A DNA stretch of 61,944 nt, taken from positions 1 through 61,944 of the forward strand of contig JANYKA010000041.1 in NCBI GenBank assembly GCA_025358315.1, read 5' to 3'. Positions 7,162 to 41,633 of the stretch are shown one piece after another. The stretch's first letter is position 1. The number at the start of each line of letters is the position of its first letter. The notes beneath the pieces are model-generated. The model saw only the letters and a program-made list of their open reading frames with translations, was not told where the DNA came from and did no database searches. This stretch comes from Gemmatimonadota bacterium. GTDB lineage: Bacteria > Gemmatimonadota > Gemmatimonadetes > Gemmatimonadales > Gemmatimonadaceae. Made by a program: the position numbers and the translations under genes.

Positions 7162-8982
7162 TCAGGTAGCCTTGGGACGTGTGGCGCGTGTGGCAACCGC
7201 TTCAGCGATCAAAAGCAGGACACCGAGCGCAAGAAAAAATCCGTCGAGCGTGCGACGGCCGGAGACATCGAACGCGGTTGCCGTCCACCGCGCGGCGTTA
7301 TCGGTCACCGATAATTCGCCGCCCGCGAAACGCGTACGCAGTTCAGATGCTGGGAGCCGTTCCAAATCACTTTCGGCGACTTCGGGATTGATCACCAACG
7401 CGCCAGCCCGCGACGCACCGCGTAGCCAGAAATACACGCCGGTCCGTGGCGGTGCTTCAATGCGCCCTGCGGTGACGGGACGTCGCACACCGTCGGGACC
7501 TTCTAGTTCGCGTGCCCAACTTGGCCGAACGACCATCGTACCGGGCCCCGCTTCGGTAACGGCACCTGCCTCGCCCGACAATCGATCGGCGATGAGGCCG
7601 CCGAGCCAGGGCACCCAACTCGCCCGCACTGGTAGGTCGGTCGCATCGGCAACCAGCGGCGAGGCAATCAGAACATAGCCGTCACCGGCCACCGCCCAAG
7701 CATCTCCGCCGACGCGGGCAAGCGTGTCGATCGCGCTGCCTTCCGGAATGGCAGCGGTGGGACGCGATTCAAGCACATACCATTGTGTGGCCGTGACATT
7801 TGTCAGTCCCGCGCCGCGCACCAACGCTGGCCCGGTGCGGCCCGCACCGAAACGCCACGGAATCCCCGCGCGTTCGAGCATCCGGTTTGCCGTCGCCAAT
7901 TGCACGGGATTCGTCGGCGCGAAGATCACGCCAGGAATGCGCGCCGCCTCGGCGCCGGTGATTGTGATGCTGACCCCCTTAGTCACGCGCCCCTGTTGCG
8001 TGAGCGCATCAACCGCTGTTCGCGCGAACGGGCCCGCCGACTGGTCTGCCATTACACTCGGAGCGGGCCCGACATGCACGGCGAAAAATCGTACATCGTC
8101 GCCCCGCATTTCATCAGGTTCGAGTTCGACGGCGCCGGCGATCCATCCGCGCTCGGCGGGTTCGAGCCGCACCACGATATCGTTGCCGGGCGATGCGGTG
8201 CCCCTCGCGGCCGCGCGCGCGCCGAGCATGACCCGATACGTGACCGAATCGGTGGCGGTCGTGGCGGCGCGAACCGCACCTCGTGGTGTCCAATGCGGTG
8301 GCTCCGCAACCGCACGAATCACGGCACGGTTGCGGGGGGCGGCCAGCGTCGGCGCAAAAATGGTGGCCGCTACTCCATCGAGCGTGACCGAGCCGGTCCA
8401 ACTCGTAGCTTGTGCGTCTGTCACGATCGCCACCTGACGTGCGGGAATCCCCGAACCTTTCACCAACTGTGTGGCCCGCGCGATCGCCGCATGTAAATCA
8501 CCGGCACCTGACAGCGCTTCGGCACGGGCGATCGCCTCACGGATGGCGCTTGCACTCCCGCTGATAACATGGGCATCAGCCGTTACGAGCCACACATGAT
8601 CGGCGCTGGTGGCGCGGTCGACCGCTGAGCGCGCGGCATCTTTGAGGCGCGCCAACACCGGCGAGCCGTTCACCACAGCGGAGGTGCTCAACGAATTATC
8701 GAGCACGATTGCCATAGCGGTCGGGGCGTGACCGGTGCCAACAAGCCGGCCGATCGGCCGCGCCGCCGCGACGGCCAGCGCCAGCACAGCCATGACGCGC
8801 AACACCATGAGCAACAGGTTGCGGATTTTTAGCTGCTGGGAGTGCTCCTTTTCTGCGCGGAGCAAATATCGCACGGCGGGAAAATCGACCTTTTCCCCCT
8901 GACGGCGGCGCAACAAATGCAGCACCAACGGCACTGCCGTAGCAGCGGCAAGCAATAATGCAAATGGGGCGAGAAAGTTCAT
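7162..8982 (-). CDS. BatA-like protein: N-terminal double-TM aerotolerance-type domain plus a VWA-like domain
   Basis: I trimmed the ORF-track call (to 9090) to the ATG at 8982, giving [27 protein letters not shown], the typical BatA N-terminal domain. That ATG forms an ATGA overlap with the DUF58 stop. A MIDAS-like DNSLS motif and a C-terminal TM helix are present. Confidence 0.7.
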   Translation of the reverse strand: MNFLAPFALLLAAATAVPLVLHLLRRRQGEKVDFPAVRYLLRAEKEHSQQLKIRNLLLMVLRVMAVLALAVAAARPIGRLVGTGHAPTAMAIVLDNSLSTSAVVNGSPVLARLKDAARSAVDRATSADHVWLVTADAHVISGSASAIREAIARAEALSGAGDLHAAIARATQLVKGSGIPARQVAIVTDAQATSWTGSVTLDGVAATIFAPTLAAPRNRAVIRAVAEPPHWTPRGAVRAATTATDSVTYRVMLGARAAARGTASPGNDIVVRLEPAERGWIAGAVELEPDEMRGDDVRFFAVHVGPAPSVMADQSAGPFARTAVDALTQQGRVTKGVSITITGAEAARIPGVIFAPTNPVQLATANRMLERAGIPWRFGAGRTGPALVRGAGLTNVTATQWYVLESRPTAAIPEGSAIDTLARVGGDAWAVAGDGYVLIASPLVADATDLPVRASWVPWLGGLIADRLSGEAGAVTEAGPGTMVVRPSWARELEGPDGVRRPVTAGRIEAPPRTGVYFWLRGASRAGALVINPEVAESDLERLPASELRTRFAGGELSVTDNAARWTATAFDVSGRRTLDGFFLALGVLLLIAEAVATRATRPKAT

Positions 8983-10271: not shown

Positions 10272-12068
10272 TTGCAGCTCGACCGTATCCGCAACTTTTG
10301 TATTGTCGCACACATTGATCACGGCAAGTCCACGCTCGCGGACCGCCTGATTGAAGCCACGGGCATGCTCCAAAAGCGCGAAATGAAAGCCCAAGTGCTG
10401 GATACACTGGATCTCGAGCGCGAGCGCGGCATTACCATCAAATTGAATGCCGTTCGCATGAGCTACGACGCCAAGGACGGCGTTACGTACGAACTCAATC
10501 TCATTGATACACCGGGGCATGTGGACTTCACGTATGAAGTCTCGCGCTCTCTCGCCGCTTGCGAAGGCGCGATTCTCGTCGTCGATGCATCGCAGGGCAT
10601 TCAGGCTCAGACGTTGTCCAATCTCTTTTTGGCAATGGAAGCGGGCCTCGAAATTATTCCCATACTTAACAAGATCGATCTCCCTGGCGCCGAGCCGGAG
10701 AAACGCCGCGACGAAGTCGTCGGGCTGCTGGGTTGCAAGCCCGAAGACATTCTCTTCGTGAGCGCGAAAGAAGGCGTCGGCGTGCCCGAGCTCCTCGAAG
10801 AAATCGTCAAGAAAGTACCGCCGCCGAGTGGCAATCCGGCTGCACCGCTCCGGGCGCTCGTGTACGACTCGTATTACGACAAGTATCGTGGCGCCGTTCC
10901 GAGCATTCGCGTCGTGGACGGCACGATCAAGAAAGGCACGCGCATCACGTTCGGCACGAACGACGGGATCTATGAAGTGGCCGAGGTGGGCTACAATCAG
11001 CTGAGGCAGGTGCCGACTGACCAGCTCACCGCCGGCGAAGTAGGCTACGTCGTTGCAAGCGTTCGGTCGGTGAAAGAAACCCGCGCCGGTGACACGGTGT
11101 TCGACGCCGACAATCGTGCCGGCCAAGCGCTGCCGGGCTACCAAGCAGTGAAATCATTTGTCTTCGCCGGTGTCTATCCCACCGACACGCAGCAATACGA
11201 AGATCTTCGGGATGCACTCGAGCGGCTGCAATTGAACGACGCCTCATTGCAGTACGAGCCGGAAACGTCCACGGCACTGGGGTTCGGCTTTCGGTGTGGA
11301 TTCCTTGGTTTGCTGCACATGGAAATTGTGCAGGAGCGATTGGAGCGTGAATTCGATCTTGACTTGGTCACCACGGTCCCGAGCGTGGAGTACCACGTCT
11401 TCAAAACCGACGGCACCGAAATGCTCGTGGAAAATCCGGCACTCATGCCGCCGGCCTCGGTGATTGATTACATCGAAGAACCGTATGTGAAGGCGCGCAT
11501 CATGGTTCCCGCGGATTACATCGGACCGATCATGACCCTCGGCACCGATCGTCGGGGCGAATACAAGGGCATGCATTACATCGACACGGCGCGCGTGGAG
11601 ATCGACTGGGAGTTTCCGCTTGGTGAAATCATTCTCGATTTCTTCGATAAGTTGAAATCCATTTCGCGCGGCTACGCCTCACTCGACTATGAGATGTTGG
11701 GGTACCGGCGGAGCGATCTTGTGCGGCTCGACATGCTCATCAATGGCGACCCAATCGATGCCTTCTCGGTGATTATTCACGAGGCGAAGGCCTACGATTG
11801 GGGACGTAAAATTGCCGACAAACTCAAAGAATTAATTCCACGGCAGTTATTCGAAGTCGCAATTCAGGCCGCGATCGGATTGAAGGTGATCGCCCGCACG
11901 ACCGTGAAACCGCTGCGGAAAGACGTCCTGGCGAAGTGCTACGGCGGCGATATCTCGCGGAAGCGAAAGTTGCTGGAAAAGCAGAAAGAAGGAAAAAAGC
12001 GGATGAAGCAGGTTGGCTCGGTGGAGATTCCTCAAGAAGCATTCCTGGCGGTGTTGCAAGTCGAGTAG
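10272..12068 (+). CDS. lepA: translation elongation factor 4 (LepA)
   Basis: 598-aa ORF with a TTG start. GTPase motifs are [27 protein letters not shown] and NKIDL. The LepA C-terminal domain ends ...[13 protein letters not shown]. Confidence 0.95.
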
Positions 12069-12072
12069 ACCC

Positions 12073-13104
12073 ATGACTTCTCTCGTCATACAGACAAGCT
12101 TTTTGGGCGACCTGGTGCTGACCACGCCGCTGCTCGCGGAGTTGGCGCTGCGCGGGCCTGTGGACGTCGTGGTGACTCCCGCGTCGGCACCTCTCTTGGC
12201 GAATCATCCGGCAGTGCGCGACGTGATTGTGTTTGACAAGCGCGGCGCCGACCGCGGATTGCTTGGGCTATGGCGATTCGCGCGCTCACTTCGCTCTCGC
12301 GAAAACGGCGAACCACGCACGATTACTGCGGCGTATCTGGCACAGGGTTCCGTCCGCAGCGCCGTGGTCGCACTAATCGCTGGAATTCGTGAACGGATTG
12401 GCTTTGACAGCTCGGCGGGGCGTCTGCTTTACTCACGCCGCGTTCACTATCGGGCTGACCAACACCACGCAGAACGGCTGTGGCGGCTCGCGGCTGGTGA
12501 TGCACCCAATCCGCTACCGGAAACGATTCGTCCACGCCTGTATCCCGGCGCGACCGAGCGCGCCGAGGTCGATACCCTGTTGCGGAACGTTCCGCGCGAC
12601 GGCGCTCCGATGCTGGCACTAGCACCGGGCAGCATATGGGGCACGAAACGCTGGCCCCACTTTGCGCCATTTGCGGCGCACATCGCGCCACTGTTCCGAA
12701 TTGTCGTCGTGGGTGGAAAGGATGACACCACACTTGCTACTGAAATCATTCGCGCGGCGGGCACCGAACGGGTAATCGATGCTACTGGACGTCTGTCGCT
12801 GCTTGCCAGCGCCGAGCTCATCGCGCGGTGTGCGGCCATCGTGACCAACGACTCGGCGCCTCAACATTTGGCGAGCGCCGTGGGGACACCAACGCTGACG
12901 ATTTACGGACCAACCGTGCCGGAATTCGGATTCGGACCGCTGGCGCCGCGCCACGCCACCATCGGTAATAGCAATCTTTCCTGCCGTCCGTGCCATCCGC
13001 ACGGTCCGCAGGTGTGCCCGTTGGCGCATTGGAAGTGCATGCGCGAGTTGGAAACCGGCCATATTGAAGCGGCACTGCACGAACTACTCCGCCTCCAAAA
13101 GTGA
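12073..13104 (+). CDS. glycosyltransferase family 9 (ADP-heptose:LPS heptosyltransferase-like)
   Basis: I trimmed the start to the ATG at 12073, 5 nt after the lepA stop. The N-terminus LVIQTSFLGDLVLTTPLL and the motif NDSAPQHLASAVGTPTLTIYG are typical of GT9. Confidence 0.8.
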   Translation: MTSLVIQTSFLGDLVLTTPLLAELALRGPVDVVVTPASAPLLANHPAVRDVIVFDKRGADRGLLGLWRFARSLRSRENGEPRTITAAYLAQGSVRSAVVALIAGIRERIGFDSSAGRLLYSRRVHYRADQHHAERLWRLAAGDAPNPLPETIRPRLYPGATERAEVDTLLRNVPRDGAPMLALAPGSIWGTKRWPHFAPFAAHIAPLFRIVVVGGKDDTTLATEIIRAAGTERVIDATGRLSLLASAELIARCAAIVTNDSAPQHLASAVGTPTLTIYGPTVPEFGFGPLAPRHATIGNSNLSCRPCHPHGPQVCPLAHWKCMRELETGHIEAALHELLRLQK

Positions 13105-13105
13105 A

Positions 13106-14098
13106 ATGACGCAGCCATCGAAAAAATACGTCGTCGGAGTAGATGTCGGCGGCACCAAACTCGCTGTTGGCGCGATGCCGTCTGATGGAAGCCGCGAAAT
13201 TGCCGTTCGGTCGGAGCTTACACTTGCCGCCGAGGGAGCCGACGCGGTCGTGGCACGCATTGGGCGGATTATCAATGAAGTCATTGCGGCGACAATGGCG
13301 GAAACAGGAGCCAGCCGCGACGCATTTCTCGGCGTTGGCATTGGATCACCAGGCCCACTCGATCGCGTGAAAGGACTAGTGATCACCACCCCAAATCTTG
13401 GCTGGACGAATTTTCCGTTGCGCGATCGCGTATCGGCTGAGGTGGGCCTGCCGGCGACGCTCGACAACGATGCGAACTGCGCCACCCTCGGCGAGTGGTG
13501 GGTTGGTGCCGCGAAAGGTGCACGTCACGTCGTTGGCATGACGATCGGCACCGGAATTGGCGGCGGGCTCATTCTCAATGGCGAGCTCTATCACGGCGCC
13601 AGCGATGTCGCGGGCGAGATCGGTCATACGACGATCGATTCCACGGGGCGCCGCTGCAAATGCGGCAACTATGGCTGTCTCGAGGCGTACGCATCGGGCC
13701 CCGCGACGGCAGAACGCGCGCGTGAAGCGCTTGCCGGCGGCGAGCCGTCGAGCCTTCTCGCGCTTTGCGGCGGTGATCCATCGAATATCACGGCGCAAAT
13801 GGTGTACGAAGCATCGAAAGCTGGTGATGCACTCGCGTATCAAGTGGTGCAGGAGACGGCTCGGTTCATCGGAACGGCAATCGCCAATCTCCTGAACATT
13901 TTCAATCCCGAGGTGGTGGTGCTGGCCGGAGGCGTTGTGCAGGCCGGGGATCAGCTCTTTGCGCCAGTGCGAGCCGAGGTGCGGCGCCGCGCGTTCAAAC
14001 CGGCGGTGGATGCGTGCCGAATCGTACCTGGGGCACTTGGCGGCTCTGCTGGCGTGGTTGGCGCAGTCGCGACCTTTCTCGCTCAGCATCCGGCATAA
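13106..14098 (+). CDS. ROK family sugar kinase (glucokinase-like)
   Basis: I trimmed the start to the ATG at 13106, 1 nt after the GT9 stop. The ATP-binding motif GVDVGGTKL and the ROK zinc motif CKCGNYGCLEAYAS are present. Confidence 0.85.
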   Translation: MTQPSKKYVVGVDVGGTKLAVGAMPSDGSREIAVRSELTLAAEGADAVVARIGRIINEVIAATMAETGASRDAFLGVGIGSPGPLDRVKGLVITTPNLGWTNFPLRDRVSAEVGLPATLDNDANCATLGEWWVGAAKGARHVVGMTIGTGIGGGLILNGELYHGASDVAGEIGHTTIDSTGRRCKCGNYGCLEAYASGPATAERAREALAGGEPSSLLALCGGDPSNITAQMVYEASKAGDALAYQVVQETARFIGTAIANLLNIFNPEVVVLAGGVVQAGDQLFAPVRAEVRRRAFKPAVDACRIVPGALGGSAGVVGAVATFLAQHPA

Positions 14099-14101
14099 GC
14101 C

Positions 14102-15109
14102 GTGGCCCGGCGAAAGCGGCTCGGCGTTATTGGCACATTTGTCTGGGACGTGATCCATGGGCGCGACACGCGCCGTGCGCCTATCGAGGAGTGGGGCGGC
14201 ATCACGTATTCGTTGAGCGCTTTCGACGCCGCCTTGCCCGCCGACTGGGAGCTGGTGCCTTTGGTGAAGGTCGGCGACGACCTTGCCGCGAGGGCGCGTG
14301 AGTTTCTGCGGGGCCTCCGACGGCTAGCACCCGACGCCGAGCCGATTGCCGTTCCCTTCCCGAACAACCGGGTTGAAATCTTTTATCACGACGCCGAGCG
14401 GCGGAGCGAAATTTTACGTGGCGGCGTTCCCAACTGGACCTGGCTCGGATTAAAGCCGCTCTTGGCCGACCTCGATGCGTTGTACGTCAACCTGCTGAGC
14501 GGATTCGAAATTGATCTCGAGACGGCTCAGCTGATTCGGCAACATTTCAAAGGGCCGATCTACTGCGACCTCCATTCGCTGGTGCTGGCGATCCAGCCGA
14601 GCGGATTGCGTACGTACCAACCGCTTCCCAACGCCGCCGCATGGTGCCGCTGTTTCGATTTTGTCCAAGTCAACGAAGACGAAATGTCAATGATGGCGGC
14701 GGACCCGATGTCGCTCGCGGCGACTGCACTGGCCAACGGCGTACAGTGCCTGACGGTCACGCTCGGCGCACGCGGCGTGGTGTATTTCGCCGCGCCGACG
14801 TTTGAACGGCTCGCTGACGTCCCTAAACGCGGTGTTTCTGCAGCAGCTCCTGATACAAAATTGGTAAGTCCGCAAGGGGGCCCAGTGCGCACCGCGTTAG
14901 TGCCGCCGCGCATTGCGCAAGTACCCGATGGCGGCGATCCCACTGGCTGTGGCGATGTATGGGGCGCAACTTATTTCTCTCGGCTCGTTGCAGGTGATAT
15001 TATGACTGAAGCGATTCGTGTCGCAGTTGAAGCGGCGGCGCGAAATGTCGAGCACCGGGGTGCTACCGGACTCGCTCACTATCTCCGGGGAGAACTGAGT
15101 CGCACGTGA
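14102..15109 (+). CDS. PfkB-family carbohydrate kinase
   Basis: 335-aa ORF with a GTG start 3 nt after the ROK stop. It carries the PfkB C-terminal signature DPTGCGDVWGATY (DxxGxGD). The substrate is unknown. Confidence 0.7.
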   Translation: MARRKRLGVIGTFVWDVIHGRDTRRAPIEEWGGITYSLSAFDAALPADWELVPLVKVGDDLAARAREFLRGLRRLAPDAEPIAVPFPNNRVEIFYHDAERRSEILRGGVPNWTWLGLKPLLADLDALYVNLLSGFEIDLETAQLIRQHFKGPIYCDLHSLVLAIQPSGLRTYQPLPNAAAWCRCFDFVQVNEDEMSMMAADPMSLAATALANGVQCLTVTLGARGVVYFAAPTFERLADVPKRGVSAAAPDTKLVSPQGGPVRTALVPPRIAQVPDGGDPTGCGDVWGATYFSRLVAGDIMTEAIRVAVEAAARNVEHRGATGLAHYLRGELSRT

Positions 15110-15999
15110 CTGCTGTCATTACCGTTCCTGCGTCGCTGGATGATCAATCGTTCGAGCAAGTGCTCGAACAGTTGACGCCGCACGCCCCGGAAACCAAGGT
15201 GATTATTGACGCGCGTCATTGCGCGTTCGCGTCGCCATTCGGACTGACGGCGCTCCTCACACTGGCCCAAACCCGGGTCGAAAAGGCGACGTTCCTGCCA
15301 CCGGAAGACGCCGATAAGGTGACGTACTGGGCGCGGGCCGGATTTTTCAAATACGCGCAGGAGTTATACGACGTTCAGGGTAACATCCCGCGTCCACGGT
15401 CGTCCGGAGAGAGTGACGTATTGCTCGAGGTGACGCCGGTGACAAAGAGCGAAGACGTGCACGACGTGGTCGAGCGCATCCAGACCCGCGCCGCCCAAAT
15501 ACTGACCAACAAACTCCATCTTGAGTCGCGGGCGACGATGGGGTTCACAATGGCGCTTTCCGAATCGTGTCAGAACATTGTCGAGCATGCGGGGCGAGGC
15601 GGTTGGGTGATGGTACAGGTGTACCAATACCGCAAACGCCTTGGCGGACGCTTTGTCGCGGTAATCGCCGTGTGCGACGCCGGCGTCGGCTTTCGGCATT
15701 CATTGGAGAGCGGGTCGCGGCGACCAGTGAGCGACCGATGGGACGACGGCATGGCGCTGGAAACCGCCGTGCTCAATGGAGTTAGCCGATTCAGCGAGAC
15801 GGGACGCGGACAAGGGCTCAAAGGCATCCGCGGCTACGTCCACCGCCGCGATGGTAAGTTCTCGGTTCGCAGCGGAACGTCGCGCATCGCTATTCTTCCG
15901 GGGTGGGATGATGATGTTCCGCGTCGCGACAATCTTTCGCCGTTTCCCGGCGCGCAGTTGCAAATCACAATTCCAGAAAAAGTGAGTGCCCAGCCATGA
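15106..15999 (+). CDS. GHKL-type ATPase (SpoIIAB/RsbW-like) with a STAS-like N-terminal region
   Basis: 297-aa ORF whose start forms a GTGA overlap with the PfkB stop. The N-terminal segment VIIDARHCAFASPFGLTALLTLAQ resembles a STAS domain. The C-terminal half carries an N-box (ESCQNIVEHAG), a G1 box (CDAGVGF) and a G2 box (GRGQGLKGI). Confidence 0.6.
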   Translation: MTAVITVPASLDDQSFEQVLEQLTPHAPETKVIIDARHCAFASPFGLTALLTLAQTRVEKATFLPPEDADKVTYWARAGFFKYAQELYDVQGNIPRPRSSGESDVLLEVTPVTKSEDVHDVVERIQTRAAQILTNKLHLESRATMGFTMALSESCQNIVEHAGRGGWVMVQVYQYRKRLGGRFVAVIAVCDAGVGFRHSLESGSRRPVSDRWDDGMALETAVLNGVSRFSETGRGQGLKGIRGYVHRRDGKFSVRSGTSRIAILPGWDDDVPRRDNLSPFPGAQLQITIPEKVSAQP

Positions 16000-16544
16000 C
16001 CCGGATTGACGTCGGCTCAGTGTTGCGGCATTCGGCTAACCTTCCGTACACGGATCTTGTCACGAGAACTACCGGCGCGGCAGTGCGGCGGTGTATCGAG
16101 ACCGAGCTCCAGTCGCTGCAGTCCGGCGATGTCGCGATGCTCGATTTCTCGCACATCGGGATGATGGACTACTCCTGCGCCGACGAAGTCGTCGCGAAGT
16201 TGCTCATTGCCCATGCCGACCACGACGCACCGATGGGATTTTTCGTATTCCACGGTATCACGGACGCCCATCTTGAGGCAATCGAAGAAGTGCTTGACCA
16301 TCACGGCCTCGCGCTGGTCGTGCATTTCGCCGACGGCGGAGCGCGACTGGTGGGCACGGTGAGTGACGCCGAGCGGAGTGCGTGGAATCATGTCTATCTT
16401 CGCGGCCCGTCCGCGGCAGAAGAGCTGGCAACGGCAGTTGGTGGCGAGAACGTGGATATGGCACCGGTACTCGATTCACTTTTGCGGCGCCGGCTGCTCC
16501 GGCTGGAAGGTGCCGCCTACGTTCCCGTCGGCCCATTGCAGTAG
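15996..16544 (+). CDS. STAS-like (DUF4325-type) domain protein with a probable C-terminal winged helix
   Basis: 182-aa ORF with an ATGA overlap with the upstream gene. The N-terminal LVTRTTGAAVRRCIE...VAMLDFSHIGMMDYSCADEVVAKLL matches the DUF4325/STAS-like pattern as I remember it. The C-terminal ...SAAEELATAVGGENVDMAPVLDSLLRRRLLRLEG looks like a wHTH. Confidence 0.55.
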   Translation: MTRIDVGSVLRHSANLPYTDLVTRTTGAAVRRCIETELQSLQSGDVAMLDFSHIGMMDYSCADEVVAKLLIAHADHDAPMGFFVFHGITDAHLEAIEEVLDHHGLALVVHFADGGARLVGTVSDAERSAWNHVYLRGPSAAEELATAVGGENVDMAPVLDSLLRRRLLRLEGAAYVPVGPLQ

Positions 16545-16843
16545 TGGCGTACAATCCGCCGCTGCAGGTCGTGGGATTTATCGCCACGCGCTCCGCAGAT
16601 ACCGAGCGCGGCCCGCTGATCCGGATTCGTAGCGACGAGGCGCGACTGCGCGGTGTGACCAATCAGGAACTGGTCTGGGTGTATGGACCGCGCCGGCACG
16701 ACCTCGCGCCGATCGAAATCGATGATTCTATTCCGCGGGGCGGCGTCGTCGTTCGCGACCTCGCCGGACTCGCCCCGACGGAAATTGTCCGCCTCGTGAA
16801 AGTCGACACCGACCGCCCCATGCTCCCGTCTTCGATCGTCTAA
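16544..16843 (+). CDS. small stand-alone double-psi beta-barrel protein (molybdopterin-dinucleotide-binding / ADC-like fold)
   Basis: I trimmed the ORF 16382-16843 to the GTG at 16544, which overlaps the upstream TAG by 1 nt, giving a 99-aa product. The pattern LIRIRSDEARLRGVTNQELVWVYGPRRHDLAPIEIDDSIPRGGVVV resembles the C-terminal barrel of MopB enzymes. Confidence 0.5.
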   Translation: MAYNPPLQVVGFIATRSADTERGPLIRIRSDEARLRGVTNQELVWVYGPRRHDLAPIEIDDSIPRGGVVVRDLAGLAPTEIVRLVKVDTDRPMLPSSIV

Positions 16844-16856
16844 GAGGTCTTTTCCC

Positions 16857-18014
16857 ATGAGCAAGAAAAAAGTCGCGCACGGCTTCGCCACGATTGCAAT
16901 TCACGGTGGCGCCGATCCGCACCATCCTGGCGACCCGGTCGCGCCGCCGCTGTTCCAGTCGGTGAACTACATCCAGGAAGTTGGCACGGCCGCCGGCCTC
17001 ATGTACTCGCGTTATGGCAATACCCCGAACGCCGAGCGGTTGCAGAAACGGCTGGCGATGCTGGAAGGGTCGGAAGCGTCGTTGGTGCTGAGCAGTGGCA
17101 TGGGCGCGACCGCCTGCGCCATGCTCGCCCTGCTTCGCCCGGGCGATCACTTGCTGGCCAGCGCCTATATCTATGGCGGCACGCATCGATTGTTCACGGA
17201 AGAGTTCGTCCGCCACGGCATTGACGTCACGTTGGTGGATCCGCTCGAGCCACGGGCTTGGCGTAAACGACTCCGCAAAGAAACGCGGGCGATTTTTGTC
17301 GAGAGCCCGGTGAATCCCACCTGCCGCGTCCTCGACCTCCGGCCCATTTCGTATTTGACAAAAGAAATCGGACTGGCGCTCGTCGTCGACTCAACCTTCG
17401 CGAGCCCCGTCAACTTTCGCCCGCTTGAACATGGCGCCGACGTGGTCATTCATTCGGCCACCAAGTTCCTCAACGGCCATCACGACGTACTGAGTGGCGT
17501 GGTGTGCGGCACTGAGCAGTACATCCAGGAAGTGCTCAATAAAATGATGGTCTGGGGTCAGGCACCCGATCCGTTCGCCATGTGGCTACTGGAGCGCGGG
17601 CTCAAGACCCTCGACGTTCGCGTGCGCCGCCAGAATGACAACACCACGCGAATCGCGCATTGGTGCGCCGAACGCAAAGAAATCCGAAAAGTTCACTTCC
17701 CCGGCCTCACAGAGCATCCCGATCACGAAATCGCCCGCGCCATGCTCGACGGATTCGGCAGTATGATGGCGATCGAGCTCGTCGGCGGCGGCAAGGTGAC
17801 GGACAAGTTTTTGCGCAAACTGAAGCTCATTCAGCATGCGGCCAGCCTTGGTGGAGTCGATTCATTGGTGTGCGAGCCGCGGTATACGTCGCACGCGGCC
17901 ATGACCAGCGACGAGCGCGCCCGCATAGGGATTCCCGACGGGTTCCTGCGGCTCAGCATTGGCATTGAAGACGCCGACGACATCATCGCCGACATCGAAC
18001 AGGCACTCAAGTAA
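16857..18014 (+). CDS. Cys/Met-metabolism PLP-dependent enzyme (cystathionine gamma-synthase/lyase family)
   Basis: 385-aa ORF with the PLP-lysine motif SATKFLNGHHDVLSG and the C-terminal motif RLSIGIED, both typical of this family. Confidence 0.9.
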   Translation: MSKKKVAHGFATIAIHGGADPHHPGDPVAPPLFQSVNYIQEVGTAAGLMYSRYGNTPNAERLQKRLAMLEGSEASLVLSSGMGATACAMLALLRPGDHLLASAYIYGGTHRLFTEEFVRHGIDVTLVDPLEPRAWRKRLRKETRAIFVESPVNPTCRVLDLRPISYLTKEIGLALVVDSTFASPVNFRPLEHGADVVIHSATKFLNGHHDVLSGVVCGTEQYIQEVLNKMMVWGQAPDPFAMWLLERGLKTLDVRVRRQNDNTTRIAHWCAERKEIRKVHFPGLTEHPDHEIARAMLDGFGSMMAIELVGGGKVTDKFLRKLKLIQHAASLGGVDSLVCEPRYTSHAAMTSDERARIGIPDGFLRLSIGIEDADDIIADIEQALK

Positions 18015-18017
18015 CGG

Positions 18018-18710
18018 ATGATTCGATTTACCCACGTCACCAAAGTCTTTCCACGCACGGGCACGGCGCTCAGTGACGTGTCGTTGCACGTCAGCAAGGG
18101 CGAGTTTGTGTTTCTCACCGGCCCCAGCGGCGCTGGCAAGAGCACCATTCTCAAATTGATTTTTCTCGAAGAACGGCCGACCAACGGAGAAGTAAAAGTC
18201 GGCAACATCAGCTCGGCGACGGCGCGCGGGCGCGACGTTCCGCGCCTGCGCCGGAAACTCGGCGTGGTGTTTCAGGATTTTCGCCTGCTCGAAGACCGAA
18301 CCGTCGAAGCCAATGTCGCCTTCGCGCTCGAAGTCACCGGCGCGCCTCAGTCCGTGATCGGTCCCAAAGTGAGCCGCCTCCTGACGCAGGTTGGACTCGG
18401 CGCAAAAGCCACGGCGCTCCCCCGCGAACTCTCTGGCGGTGAACAGCAGCGGGTGGCCATCGCCCGGGCGCTGGCCAACGATCCGCAGGTGCTCATTGCC
18501 GACGAGCCCACCGGCAATCTCGACGACCGGGCCACTCGCGGAGTGCTACAACTGTTGCGCGACATCAACAGCGCCGGCACTGCCATCATGATGGCAACCC
18601 ACGACCTCGAACTGACAAAGCGCGAAGGGTTCCGGGTGCTGGAAGTCAATCGCGGCCTGCTCGTCTTTGACTCGGCAGATCCGAACGGATCGGCCAAGGC
18701 GGGCACATGA
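18018..18710 (+). CDS. ftsE: cell-division ABC transporter ATP-binding protein FtsE
   Basis: 230-aa ORF with Walker A (GPSGAGKST), signature (LSGGEQQRVAIARAL) and Walker B (LIADEPTGNLD). It is followed by ftsX. Confidence 0.9.
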   Translation: MIRFTHVTKVFPRTGTALSDVSLHVSKGEFVFLTGPSGAGKSTILKLIFLEERPTNGEVKVGNISSATARGRDVPRLRRKLGVVFQDFRLLEDRTVEANVAFALEVTGAPQSVIGPKVSRLLTQVGLGAKATALPRELSGGEQQRVAIARALANDPQVLIADEPTGNLDDRATRGVLQLLRDINSAGTAIMMATHDLELTKREGFRVLEVNRGLLVFDSADPNGSAKAGT

Positions 18711-19555
18711 GACTCGCCTGGCGTGAAGCCCTGCTCGCCTTTCGGCGTGCGCCCGTTTTGAGCGCACTCAGCGTGACCACCATCGCCTTCTCGCTGTTCG
18801 CGTTCGGGTTGTTCGGGCTGGTGGCGCTGAACATCCGACATGCGCTCGTTCAGGTCGAGGAGCGGGTCGAGGTGCGCGCATTCATTGTCGATGGCACGCC
18901 TGCCGAGGTCACGAGCACGGCGCTGGGTGATATTGCGGCGTTCCCCGAGGTGTTGTCGGCGAAAATGGTCTCGCCGGAACAAGCATTGGAGCGCGCCCGC
19001 AAGGAACTCGGTGAATTCAGTGACGTGTTTGATCCCGGCATTCTCCCGGCGTCGATCGATGTGCGCTTGAAAGAAGGGCATCGCGATCCGACCACCGTGA
19101 AGGCGGTCGCCGAACGCATTCGCACCTATGATTTTATTGACGACGTCCGGTTCGGCGAAGAATGGGTGGAAAAGTTGTACCGCATTCGCACCCTCGCCAC
19201 ACTCGTGGGCATTGTCCTTGGGCTGACGTTCGCGTTGGTCGCCGTCATCATTATTGGATCGACGATTCGCATGGCCGTGCTGGCGCGGGCCCGCGAGATA
19301 TCAGTGATGCGACTCGTTGGGGCCACCGACGGATTCATTCGCAGCCCGTTCCTGATTGAAGGTGCGCTCAAAGGGCTGCTGGGCGGCCTCTTGGCACTCG
19401 CCCTCTCGGCAGCGGCGAATGCAGTAATCAGCAAGTTTGTTTTTCGCGCCGATTTCTTCGACGCAAAATTCGCCGTAGCGGGCGTGCTGGCCGGCGCGCT
19501 GATCGGGCTGCTCGGCAGCGCCGTGTCAGTAGGCCGGCATTTGCGCGACGTGTGA
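18707..19555 (+). CDS. ftsX: cell-division permease-like protein FtsX
   Basis: 282-aa ORF with an ATGA overlap with ftsE. The topology is one N-terminal TM helix, a large periplasmic loop and three C-terminal TM helices. Confidence 0.85.
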   Translation: MRLAWREALLAFRRAPVLSALSVTTIAFSLFAFGLFGLVALNIRHALVQVEERVEVRAFIVDGTPAEVTSTALGDIAAFPEVLSAKMVSPEQALERARKELGEFSDVFDPGILPASIDVRLKEGHRDPTTVKAVAERIRTYDFIDDVRFGEEWVEKLYRIRTLATLVGIVLGLTFALVAVIIIGSTIRMAVLARAREISVMRLVGATDGFIRSPFLIEGALKGLLGGLLALALSAAANAVISKFVFRADFFDAKFAVAGVLAGALIGLLGSAVSVGRHLRDV

Positions 19556-20787
19556 TGCGCGGTAGACTGGCACGTACCCGGGTCGTGTTGACAGCAGTGC
19601 TCGTCACGCTGGCAGGCGCTACCGCGGCTGCCCAAGCGACGCCTCCCACCTCACCGCCGCAGCAGAACTCCACGGAGCGGCTGCAGAGGCAGCGCGAGGA
19701 ACTCGACCGCATCCGCCGCGAGCGCTCCGATCTTGAAAAACGGATGCGCGACTTGCGCACCTCGGTGCATGACCTCTCCGAAGAGCGGACCAACATCGAA
19801 CGTCAGGCGGAAGCCACATCCCGGGCGGTGCGGACGCTCGACCAGCAGCTGCAATCGCTTGGCGAAGAAGAGAACAATGCCACCGCCGACCTGATTCGCG
19901 CCCAGGATGAACTCGCCGGCAAGCGCGCCACCTTGCAGCATCGCGTGCGCGAAATCTACAAACGCGGCGCGATGTATTCGTTCGAAGCGATGCTCTCAGC
20001 GCAGTCGTTCGGTGAGCTGGTCGCACGCTACAAGTATTTGCACCTCGTCGCCCAGCGTGATCAGGCGTTGGTGCAACGGGTCGAGACGCTTCGTTCCGTG
20101 ATCGACCGGCAGCGGCAGACGCTGGTGCTGCTCCACGATAATGTCGAGACCTCGCGCCAGGAGAAGTCGGACGAAGAAAGGCGACTGCGTGGTCTGGAGG
20201 GAGAGCGCTCACGTAGCCTGCAACAGGCGCAGTCGAGACAAAAACAGGCGGCGGCGCGGTATGCGCAGATCCTCAGGGACGAGCAGAGACTGACGGGCGC
20301 AATTGCCAATCTCGAGTCAGAACGGAAACGGGCCGAGGGTCGTTCCGGGACGTCTATTCCCACCACGAGTACGCTCAAAACGAGCGACTTCGGCAAACTC
20401 GATTGGCCGGTTGAGGGCGATATCATTTACCGATTCGGGCGATTTGTCGGAAAGGGCGGTACTACGCTACGGTGGAATGGCGTCGGAATTTCGGCGCCGG
20501 AGGGTACGCCGGTAAAGGCGGTGACGGCGGGTACGGTTGCCGAAGTGTTTCAGAGCCTCAGTACATTCGGGCCAACTATTGTGCTCCACAATGGCGGCGG
20601 CGCGTACACGGTCTACAGTTCGCTTGGGAAAATCAGTGTGACCAAGGGCGCGAAAATTGCAAAAGGCCAGATGATCGGTACGGTTGGGAAGACAGATCCC
20701 GAGCTGGGGCCGCATTTGCACTTTGAGATCCGGCCCACGGGACAGCAGGCGGTTGACCCGCTTGAATGGTTGCGGTCGCGCCGATGA
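19552..20787 (+). CDS. EnvC-like murein hydrolase activator (coiled coil plus M23/LytM domain)
   Basis: 411-aa ORF overlapping the ftsX stop. It has a signal peptide, a long Q/E/R-rich coiled coil and a C-terminal M23 domain (GPHLHFEIR). The ftsEX-envC gene order is retained. Confidence 0.85.
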   Translation: MMRGRLARTRVVLTAVLVTLAGATAAAQATPPTSPPQQNSTERLQRQREELDRIRRERSDLEKRMRDLRTSVHDLSEERTNIERQAEATSRAVRTLDQQLQSLGEEENNATADLIRAQDELAGKRATLQHRVREIYKRGAMYSFEAMLSAQSFGELVARYKYLHLVAQRDQALVQRVETLRSVIDRQRQTLVLLHDNVETSRQEKSDEERRLRGLEGERSRSLQQAQSRQKQAAARYAQILRDEQRLTGAIANLESERKRAEGRSGTSIPTTSTLKTSDFGKLDWPVEGDIIYRFGRFVGKGGTTLRWNGVGISAPEGTPVKAVTAGTVAEVFQSLSTFGPTIVLHNGGGAYTVYSSLGKISVTKGAKIAKGQMIGTVGKTDPELGPHLHFEIRPTGQQAVDPLEWLRSRR

Positions 20788-21647
20788 TCGCGGCGAAAAA
20801 ATCCGCGCCGCTCGGAGCGCACATTTCCACTGCTGGTGGCGTACCGCTCGCGCCGCCGCGCGCCGACGATATCGGCGCGTCGGCCATGCAAATTTTCACC
20901 AAGCAACCCAATCGCTGGGCCGAGCGCGATGTTGAAGCGGAGGAGGCCAAGAAGTTCACGGCTGCTCTGAAAGCGAGTGGTGTGCAGTTCACTAACGCGC
21001 ACGACAGCTACCTGATTAATCTGGCCTCGCCCGATCCGGTGCTACGGGCGAAGTCCATTGACGCGTTCGCCGGCGAACTGCGACGCTGCCACGCGCTTGG
21101 TCTCGATGCCTGCGTGTCGCATCCGGGTAATTTTATGGACGATCGGGTGAGCGGCATTGCTCGCAACGCTGACGGCATCGTACAAGCGCTGGAACAAGAA
21201 AAAGGCGCGACACGTCTCTTGATGGAGCTCACGGCGGGCCAAGGCACAGTGATTGGGTCTACGTTCGAAGAGATGGCCGCACTGCTCAAACTGGTTCCGG
21301 CAAAACTGCGCAAGCGGGTTGGTGTCTGTCTCGACACCGCACACGTATTTGCCGCAGGGTACGATCTGATCAACGATTACGACGGCGTATGGAAGCGGTT
21401 TGACGACGCCCTTGGACTGGAGCGCCTTGGGCTGATTCACCTGAACGACTCCAAGGCACCGCTCGGGTCCAAAAAAGACCGTCACGAATTGATCGGTGAA
21501 GGGATGATCGGCAGCGAGCCGTTCCGCCGGATCATGACAGATCCGCAATTGGCCGGAGTGCCCAAGTTGCTGGAGACGCCCAAGGGCGACGACATGGTGA
21601 CGAACGACCGCCGGATGCTCAAGCTTCTGACGGCGTTCGCGGGCTGA
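20784..21647 (+). CDS. nfo: deoxyribonuclease IV (endonuclease IV, Nfo)
   Basis: I trimmed the start to the ATG at 20784, which forms an ATGA overlap with the upstream stop. Motifs HDSYLINLAS, CLDTAHVFAAGYD and HLNDSK are present. Confidence 0.9.
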   Translation: MIAAKKSAPLGAHISTAGGVPLAPPRADDIGASAMQIFTKQPNRWAERDVEAEEAKKFTAALKASGVQFTNAHDSYLINLASPDPVLRAKSIDAFAGELRRCHALGLDACVSHPGNFMDDRVSGIARNADGIVQALEQEKGATRLLMELTAGQGTVIGSTFEEMAALLKLVPAKLRKRVGVCLDTAHVFAAGYDLINDYDGVWKRFDDALGLERLGLIHLNDSKAPLGSKKDRHELIGEGMIGSEPFRRIMTDPQLAGVPKLLETPKGDDMVTNDRRMLKLLTAFAG

Positions 21648-41555: not shown

Positions 41556-41627
41556 TCCCGAGTAGCTCAGGGGTAGAGCAGGCGACTGTTAATCGCCGGG
41601 TCGGGGGTTCAAATCCCTCCTCGGGAG
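41556..41627 (+). tRNA. tRNA-Asn (anticodon GTT)
   Basis: A cloverleaf folds by hand with acceptor TCCCGAG/CTCGGGA, D-arm GCTC-AGGGGTA-GAGC and anticodon arm GGCGA-CTGTTAA-TCGCC. The T-arm is GGGGG-TTCAAAT-CCCTC and the discriminator is G. CCA is not encoded. Confidence 0.9.
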
Positions 41628-41633
41628 CTGTGT

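Follow-up and report, generated by a model that had tools for sequence, protein, structure and literature searches.

A divergent CapK/CapS-type kinase-substrate gene pair, predicted from profiles and models, in a core operon of Gemmatimonadota

The 61,944-nt stretch analysed here (contig JANYKA010000041.1 of the Gemmatimonadota bacterium assembly GCA_025358315.1, referred to as the window) carries three consecutive forward-strand genes, here called genes 1, 2 and 3, of which genes 1 and 2 are the main subject of this study. Based on profile-profile comparison and structure prediction, genes 1 and 2 are a divergent kinase-substrate pair of the CapK/CapS-VapK/VapS type, and in the sampled Gemmatimonadota the pair is inherited vertically within a housekeeping operon. 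It stands apart from CapKS in four features, namely the helix-turn-helix (HTH) of the kinase, the spacers with their operators, the immune genes as cargo and the DNA-reading helix of the substrate. The two genes and the codons of the residues discussed below are located as follows:

15106..15999, + strand: gene 1, predicted CapK/VapK-family kinase of 297 aa, GTG start (hhalign, AlphaFold2, Foldseek and PDB profiles)
15226..15228, + strand: codon of gene 1 Phe41, which aligns with VapK Phe54 (hhalign)
15574..15576, + strand: codon of gene 1 Asn157, the predicted N-box Mg-ATP ligand, equivalent of CapK Asn218
15996..16544, + strand: gene 2, predicted CapS-family protein of 182 aa, ATG start (hhalign, PDB profiles and AlphaFold2)
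16173..16175, + strand: codon of gene 2 Ser60, the predicted phospho-acceptor, in a D-Y-S-C-A-D-E motif

CapK/CapS has been described as a DNA-damage switch for immune genes (Chambers, Rani, Min, Villa, Corbett, EMBO J 2026, PMC13373217). CapK has the architecture HTH-STAS-GHKL and CapS consists of a STAS domain and a winged helix, and their genes lie ahead of immune operons such as those of Bub, CBASS and Thoeris. A CapS dimer represses its own and the downstream promoters; when single-stranded DNA (ssDNA) activates CapK, CapS is phosphorylated at Ser54, the dimer dissociates and transcription is de-repressed. Deletion of the CapK HTH had no effect, and the CapS substitution N145A weakens DNA binding. 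Promoter-bearing intergenic regions with palindromic CapS sites are located between capK and capS and after capS. Structures of CapS are available (9Z71-9Z73), and the reset phosphatase of CapKS was not identified in that study. In VapKSC, the HTH-less kinase VapK frees the STAS antitoxin VapS from the PIN toxin VapC (all PMC13373217). The CapK, CapS, VapK and VapS sequences used here were taken from the source data of the same paper, and Gemmatimonadota are absent from the datasets published with it. An earlier reading of the window from sequence only had considered the gene combination to be without described function; this view has been overtaken, as a STAS-GHKL kinase with a STAS-winged-helix substrate was published in 2026 as CapK/CapS, alongside the related VapKSC (PMC13373217).

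Gene 1 was confirmed by profiles and modelling as a STAS plus GHKL protein, with a STAS-like part at residues ~1-98 joined by a linker to the C-terminal GHKL ATP-binding domain. The Pfam matches of the window proteins of genes 1-3 were all below the curated cut-offs (HATPase_c_2 in gene 1 with E 3.7e-4, STAS_2 with E 8.9e-3), NCBIfam gave nothing useful for the three proteins, and a PDB search with gene 1 as a single sequence returned only noise. With a profile of gene 1, residues 4-97 matched the SpoIIAA-like STAS protein 4hyl (E 2e-6), and residues 148-258 matched ATP-binding domains of histidine kinases (E 4e-4). The AlphaFold2 model had a mean predicted local distance difference test (pLDDT) score of 92 and a predicted template modelling score of 0.91, and its Foldseek matches were GHKL folds: LvrB, the anti-sigma-F kinase UsfX, CheA P4 and RsbW. 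The Bergerat fold proposed by the sequence-only reading is thus present in the model.

The gene 1 family alignment A2 comprises 39 relatives, down to 29 % identity, and down to that level the relatives retain the N-box with E153 and N157, the D191-x-G-x-G of the G1 box and the G-R-G-Q-G-L of the G2 box. In hhalign comparisons the family matched CapK with 98.5 % (E 1.8e-15, 250 columns) and VapK with 96.8 % (E 2.4e-10). The segment SESCQN157IVEH pairs with SELIGN218VRDH of CapK, the shared kinase asparagine being nearly invariant in the 39 relatives. Residues H38-C39-A40-F41 pair with H51-C52-R53-F54 of VapK within a common local H-C-x-F-x-x-P motif, and the Phe41 column is aromatic in 33 of the 39 members. 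Phe54 in VapK and Trp68 in CapK are the aromatic residues proposed to stack on ssDNA. R176-K177-R178 of a basic Y-R-K-R patch pair with K237/K239 of CapK, with partial conservation. The residues for ssDNA sensing can be traced in part only. Unlike CapK (368 aa), gene 1 has no N-terminal HTH: it opens on the STAS strand, its residue 3 aligning with CapK residue 61. In this respect it resembles VapK, likewise a STAS plus GHKL kinase without HTH from a three-gene operon. The only PADLOC match at the locus was between gene 1 residues 109-267 (15430-15906) and positions 103-251 of the 1750-position DrmA model (E 6e-9), an N-terminal part of the model; it was read as generic GHKL similarity, and membership of DISARM was rejected. 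The match suggests that some DISARM DrmA-like proteins would carry a related N-terminal GHKL module.

Gene 2 has a STAS/DUF4325-like part at residues ~1-120 and a C-terminal winged helix at ~121-182, an architecture that the sequence-only reading had also put forward and that family profiles, the CapS match and the modelled winged helix support. The window protein itself gave a sub-threshold DUF4325 match (E 0.064), which was detected in 10 of the 38 family members; DUF4325, STAS_2 and winged-helix families were each matched in subsets of the relatives. The best PDB profile matches were the CapS structures 9z72 and 9z71 (184-185 aa), and hhalign of the gene 2 family (A4) with CapS gave 87.8 % (E 3.3e-6) over 151 collinear columns, covering the whole protein. 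Profile-profile homology to CapK/CapS thus extends over nearly the whole length of both window proteins, and as in CapK/CapS the STAS plus GHKL kinase gene is followed directly by that of the STAS plus winged-helix protein. The match of gene 2 with VapS was weak (41 %). Ser60 is invariant in the 38 sequences, which come from several phyla, and lies at the N-terminus of a predicted helix (59-75); D58-Y59-S60 aligns with D52-S53-S54 of CapS, so that the absolutely conserved serine at the start of STAS helix alpha-2 is S60 in gene 2 and S54 in CapS. The invariant motifs of the family are L-V-T-R-x-T-G...R and D-x-S-C-A-D-E. In the AlphaFold2 model the winged helix had a pLDDT of 81-92 and the STAS part 52-69, the low confidence of the latter being due to the shallow input alignment. 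A Foldseek search with this model returned winged-helix matches only, and the CapS entries were not among them (library to April 2026).

A bridging case is provided by a locus designated L090, in which the gene 1 homologue P0457 (289 aa, no HTH) is 30 % identical to gene 1 and was matched over its full length (phmmer E 1e-25). The next gene encodes a protein of 186 aa that matches the gene 2 profile with 99.1 % (E 3.8e-19) and has the motif DFSCSDE. The pair is flanked by HsdR-HsdM-HsdS and by a Bub operon (Multi_ubiq, ThiF, BubE), so that a member of the same sequence family occupies the position between a restriction system and a Bub operon known for CapKS. This setting is the published CapKS context, and L090 removes most of the doubt about the kinship with CapKS.

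Genes 1-3 each have hundreds to thousands of relatives, and among the best 120 relatives per gene all source-named matches but one bear Gemmatimonadota names. An exhaustive search with gene 1 gave 1103 clusters at 50 % identity, with full-length relatives down to ~29 % identity. A genome scan with one genome per species and a narrower gene 1 alignment (A3) gave 80 loci, mostly from Gemmatimonadota and the remainder from Nitrospirota, Desulfobacteraceae, Brocadiaceae, Planctomycetia and a deltaproteobacterium. The synteny counts for Gemmatimonadota rest on 67 loci. Gene 2 follows gene 1 directly in 66 of these, an obligate co-occurrence, and the two overlap in 54 loci (by 4 nt in 41 and by 1 nt in 13). 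A gene for a PfkB-like kinase precedes gene 1 in 65 of the 67, with a 4-nt overlap in 56, and before it a ROK kinase gene is found in 56 loci, missing mostly where the available sequence stops short. What is conserved and translationally coupled is therefore the unit PfkB-like kinase - gene 1 - gene 2. In the PfkB-like protein only the C-terminal ATP motif DPTGCGD was detected, and its PDB matches were weak. The block of ROK, PfkB, gene 1 and gene 2 spans Gemmatimonadaceae to Longimicrobiales at gene 1 identities of 42-78 %, with differing downstream genes. Together with the uniform base composition of the operon, this is the basis for regarding the pair as domesticated.

In the window, the genes adjoining the pair are:

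13106..14098, + strand: gene for a ROK-family sugar kinase (Pfam ROK E 3e-71; TIGR00744)
14102..15109, + strand: gene for a PfkB-like (ribokinase-family) kinase (Pfam PfkB E 6.8e-8)
16544..16843, + strand: gene 3, stand-alone protein of 99 aa resembling the MopB C-terminal barrel, GTG start (PF01568, profiles)

The coordinates of the three open reading frames and of their overlaps agree with those reported earlier: the PfkB stop and the gene 1 start share GTGA (4 nt), genes 1 and 2 share ATGA (-4 nt), genes 2 and 3 overlap by 1 nt in TAGTG (-1 nt), and +13 nt separate gene 3 from the next gene. The assigned start codons are supported, since homologues begin at the same residues (MTAVITVP for gene 1 and MAYNPPLQ for gene 2). 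All three genes are part of an 11-gene run (10272-21647) in the order lepA, GT9 heptosyltransferase, ROK, PfkB-like kinase, genes 1, 2 and 3, a cystathionine gamma-synthase-family enzyme dependent on pyridoxal phosphate (the Cys/Met PLP gene), ftsE, ftsX, an M23/EnvC-like peptidase and an endonuclease-IV-like gene (AP_endonuc_2; nfo). None of the ten junctions exceeds 13 nt, and at least five are overlaps; a sixth overlap is that of the M23 gene and nfo, whichever candidate nfo start is used. This tight packing suggests a single long operon, the order of which is kept in Gemmatimonadaceae loci (e.g. L001 and L077). Overlap of start and stop is an operon-wide rule and not peculiar to the trio; stoichiometric co-expression of the trio, as proposed earlier, is an inference from overlaps of a kind common throughout the operon.

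Base composition is even across the operon (GC content 0.56-0.65) and the window shows no compositional sign of recent transfer. Neither paralogues of genes 1-3 nor a MopB gene were found in the window. Promoter and terminator scans at the locus gave matches at chance level only, and no conserved palindrome was found. The only strong palindrome nearby is an inverted repeat at 15144-15175 (15+15 nt, 13 of 15 complementary, 2-nt spacer) within gene 1 codons 13-23. It was rejected as an operator: relatives match at no more than 11, mostly 4-9, positions, and the repeat is explained by the codons for F-E-Q-V-L-E-Q, which produce it. Elsewhere in the 62-kb window, a tRNA-Asn (GTT) at 41556-41628 was the sole Rfam or ARAGORN match.

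Gene 3 had been compared to the C-terminal barrel of MopB oxidoreductases, and this likeness is supported at the level of sequence profiles. The window protein has a Molydop_binding match (PF01568, E 1.3e-4, below the Pfam cut-off), most homologues have precomputed PF01568 matches, and the profile of gene 3 is similar over ~50 residues to the C-terminal domains (domain IV) of trimethylamine N-oxide (TorA) and dimethyl sulfoxide (DorA) reductases, with E-values of 4e-4 to 2e-3. Unlike the MopB enzymes, gene 3 is a stand-alone protein lacking catalytic domains. It is present in 35 of the 67 Gemmatimonadota loci, all of them Gemmatimonadaceae-like and all but one (L078, 53 %) with a gene 1 identity of at least 57 %, and absent from all loci scanned outside the phylum. 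There are 20 loci with the Cys/Met PLP gene and without gene 3, and in 17 of these the PLP start lies within ~35 nt of the gene 2 stop, which leaves no room for a diverged gene 3. The arrangement of genes 1, 2 and 3 recurs in many loci and is therefore more than chance, yet of the proposed trio only genes 1 and 2 occur together both in Gemmatimonadota and in other phyla. Gene 3 is a later, Gemmatimonadaceae-specific insertion outside the conserved core, which may encode an accessory ligand-binding or adaptor protein.

Outside Gemmatimonadota, genes 1 and 2 usually share a neighbourhood but lie 1-5 kb apart (Nitrospirota, Desulfobacterota, Brocadiaceae), no PfkB-like gene was found to adjoin gene 1, and the upstream genes vary. 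In L018 (3400-8400), L019 (6900-11880) and L021 (6850-11500) the two are separated by variable genes, including those of D12-class and N6/N4 DNA methyltransferases; in Nitrospirota, Desulfobacteraceae and Brocadiaceae the gap looks as if it were an insertion hotspot for restriction-modification cargo. In the Nitrospiraceae loci L009 (9022-10856), L011 (3316-5200) and L020 (8626-10423), gene 2 is followed by a His_Phos_1 protein, a candidate for the reset phosphatase, and then by RmuC; RmuC follows gene 2, directly or past the His_Phos_1 gene, in five Nitrospirota-type loci. L009 also contains ~1 kb (7445-8442) without an open reading frame of at least 90 aa, between a 152-aa Cys-rich frame downstream of gene 1 and gene 2, which could accommodate the promoter and operator of gene 2 or else an RNA. 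In the distant relative L005 (2107-4357), where identities to gene 1 and gene 2 are 39 % and 34 %, the genes after the pair encode a fragment of an AHJR-like nuclease and an NTPase of the KAP family, cargo that looks like a defence type and is not among the published CapKS-associated systems. In L088 (4228-10493) a gene 1 homologue of 36 % identity lies between a NarL-type two-component pair upstream and two uncharacterised genes and priA downstream; the gene adjoining the homologue is not gene 2-like and no gene 2 homologue is adjacent, and the locus is a further non-immune context for a gene 1-type kinase.

The winged helix of gene 2 differs between these groups. Its net charge is -2 in the window protein and -5 to +1 in most Gemmatimonadota (outliers +5 and +10), compared to +3 to +9 beyond the phylum and +4 in CapS. 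Where CapS has Q-N145-A-S-T-R, gene 2 has V-D154-M-A-P-V, Asp154 occupying the position of the CapS Asn145. Nitrospirota-type proteins have N-T-S-G-T-R and L005 and L035 have N-S/T-A-S-T-K/R, and N-x-S-x-T-[R/K] is common to these and CapS; the L090 homologue has a weaker motif, N-V-S-M-K. Gemmatimonadota proteins have no conserved polar pattern at the recognition helix and a wing shorter by ~9 residues. The recognition helix of gene 2 thus appears degenerate and acidic, in contrast to the polar, basic one of CapS, DNA binding being judged here from sequence. In Gemmatimonadota the winged helix has apparently kept its fold and lost its DNA-reading surface and motif. In a clade of Gemmatimonadales (L031, L052, L062, L065, L070, L075, L079 and L084) gene 2 encodes only 141-148 aa: the STAS part is kept and ~31 residues of the winged helix are left, two-thirds being lost, which gives a VapS-like form within a CapS-like lineage. 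In L048 (2393-3847) the gene 2 frame extends into the Cys/Met PLP gene to 485 aa, either a true fusion or an assembly frameshift.

We consider it probable, with some reserve, that genes 1 and 2 are a CapK/CapS-type kinase-substrate switch with its output at the protein level. The partner-switching-like module of a Ser kinase and a STAS substrate suggested earlier agrees with the CapK/CapS homology, and by analogy with these systems we infer Ser60 phosphorylation, the activating signal and the output of the pair. ATP would be bound by the Bergerat fold of gene 1 (N157, D191-x-G-x-G, G-R-G-Q-G-L). Activated gene 1 would then phosphorylate Ser60 of gene 2 at the start of STAS helix alpha-2, the position of CapS Ser54 and SpoIIAA Ser58, and this would alter the binding state of gene 2, either with itself as a dimer or with a partner. 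The activating ligand is probably ssDNA or another polyanion, by analogy with CapK and VapK, with ssDNA as the default candidate; it may be bound in the STAS/GHKL groove, near Phe41 and the basic Y-R-K-R patch. Because the recognition motif of gene 2 is lost and no promoter is adjacent, we favour binding and release of a protein partner, as with VapS, over repression of an adjacent promoter. The most likely partner would be the co-translated PfkB-like kinase, as no other partner is conserved throughout the phylum; this is the weakest step of the scheme.

Several points weigh against this interpretation. The match of gene 2 with CapS is modest (87.8 %), and its STAS half, which carries Ser60, was modelled with low confidence (pLDDT 52-69). 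The position of CapK Trp68 is a variable, non-aromatic residue in gene 1 (Ser10), and ssDNA sensing may for this reason not be retained. An acidic winged helix is no proof of lost DNA binding, the more so as the winged-helix fold of gene 2 is predicted with high confidence and its L..L..RR.L pattern is conserved. The link to the PfkB-like kinase comes from synteny and overlap, and in Nitrospirota the upstream gene varies. No reset phosphatase was seen in the window. In the Gemmatimonadota branch, the kinase-substrate switch as a whole is proposed from sequence, models and analogy.

The most serious alternative is that the canonical CapKS mode is kept, gene 2 being a dimeric repressor at an intragenic, operon-upstream or distant promoter. 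After DNA damage, phosphorylation of Ser60 by gene 1 would then free gene 2 and tune the operon (sugar kinases, ftsEX-envC, nfo) or a distant regulon. The matching architectures of gene 1/gene 2 and CapK/CapS and the confidently predicted winged-helix fold of gene 2 agree with this, as do the orthologues outside Gemmatimonadota, in which the winged helix is still basic and bears the CapS-like N-x-S-x-T-R. Genes of DNA repair and recombination also occur in the wider neighbourhoods: the endonuclease-IV-like gene at the end of the window operon, RmuC after gene 2 in the Nitrospirota-type loci, and PriA two genes downstream of the L088 gene 1 homologue, which has no adjacent gene 2 homologue. However, there is no intergenic space at either junction of the pair, where CapKS has its promoter-bearing spacers. 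The recognition-helix residues in Gemmatimonadota are unconserved, acidic or hydrophobic, with Asp154 in place of the CapS Asn145, and in some lineages two-thirds of the winged helix are gone. The only strong palindrome nearby is unconserved, and promoter-like sites are at chance level. We regard retention of the canonical mode as rather unlikely. CapKS was introduced as regulating anti-phage and stress operons on mobile islands and has an immune operon downstream; the window pair belongs to a core operon kept throughout the phylum, where it is coupled to a PfkB-like kinase and followed by gene 3, the Cys/Met PLP enzyme, ftsE, ftsX and the M23 peptidase.

A classical anti-sigma partner switch, in which gene 1 would sequester a sigma factor encoded elsewhere and gene 2 would be the STAS antagonist, is very unlikely. 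As in SpoIIAB/SpoIIAA and RsbW/RsbV, a GHKL Ser kinase is combined with a STAS protein with a conserved Ser, the folds match, and UsfX, RsbW, SpoIIAB and SpoIIAA-like STAS proteins were among the Foldseek or profile matches. In sequence, however, the similarity to CapK (E 1.8e-15) far exceeds that to SpoIIAB and RsbW, for which the PDB profile E-values were 0.06-0.2. The absence of an adjacent sigma factor or PP2C phosphatase, remarked on by the sequence-only reading, was found to hold for the annotated neighbours in the window and in related loci, and in contrast to the classical pairs both window proteins have extra domains, a STAS domain in gene 1 itself and a winged helix in gene 2.

A trio of the toxin-antitoxin or defence type resembling VapKSC, with gene 3 as an effector restrained by gene 2, appears extremely unlikely. 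The lack of an HTH in the kinase, as in VapK, and the three consecutive, coupled genes would fit such a system, as would the nuclease fragment and NTPase in L005, and release of one protein from another is the output that we favour by analogy. Yet gene 3 resembles a cofactor-binding barrel and not a PIN domain or other toxin, is unrelated to VapC and gave no PADLOC match, and it occurs in only about half of the Gemmatimonadota loci and in no other phylum. No PIN toxin is encoded here, the locus lies outside a defence neighbourhood in syntenic core genome of uniform composition, and VapS has a short C-terminal helix where gene 2 has a full winged-helix fold. That genes 1 and 2 merely adjoin as members of a long operon is hardly credible: the packing of that operon is unspecific, but the two are found together, whatever their neighbours, in nearly all Gemmatimonadota loci and also in other phyla, and their homologues are an experimentally shown kinase-substrate pair (PMC13373217). 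For gene 3, adjacency without function is possible.

To return to the protein-level switch, in its fullest form the pair would have been rewired from transcriptional control of mobile immune operons to a core post-translational switch. Gene 2, no longer reading DNA, would bind and release the PfkB-like sugar kinase, or in Gemmatimonadaceae maybe the MopB-like barrel protein instead, and the kinase would answer to ssDNA or another polyanion. Taken jointly with these readings of partner, signal and stress link, the proposal is unlikely to hold in full and is put forward tentatively. If true, the rewired switch would connect stress on the genome or on replication with envelope-sugar metabolism and with ftsEX-envC, the division genes downstream.

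The kinase-substrate chemistry of such modules is already known. The present analysis adds a phylum-wide, domesticated copy that is tied to a sugar kinase and is apparently no longer a repressor in cis. A module of the CapK/CapS type thus exists also at a single locus and vertically inherited, as a member of a housekeeping operon throughout the Gemmatimonadota sampled, with a looser form in Nitrospirota and neighbouring lineages. It provides a testable annotation for thousands of soil-metagenome entries named 'ATP-binding protein' or 'hypothetical protein', and as the locus is present in cultured Gemmatimonas strains (L038), experiments are feasible. The canonical L090, the predicted DNA-binding type beside variable islands in Nitrospirota and the tightly coupled type with a degenerate winged helix in Gemmatimonadota form a natural series, and these intermediates offer a means of asking how a DNA-damage-sensing switch is repurposed.

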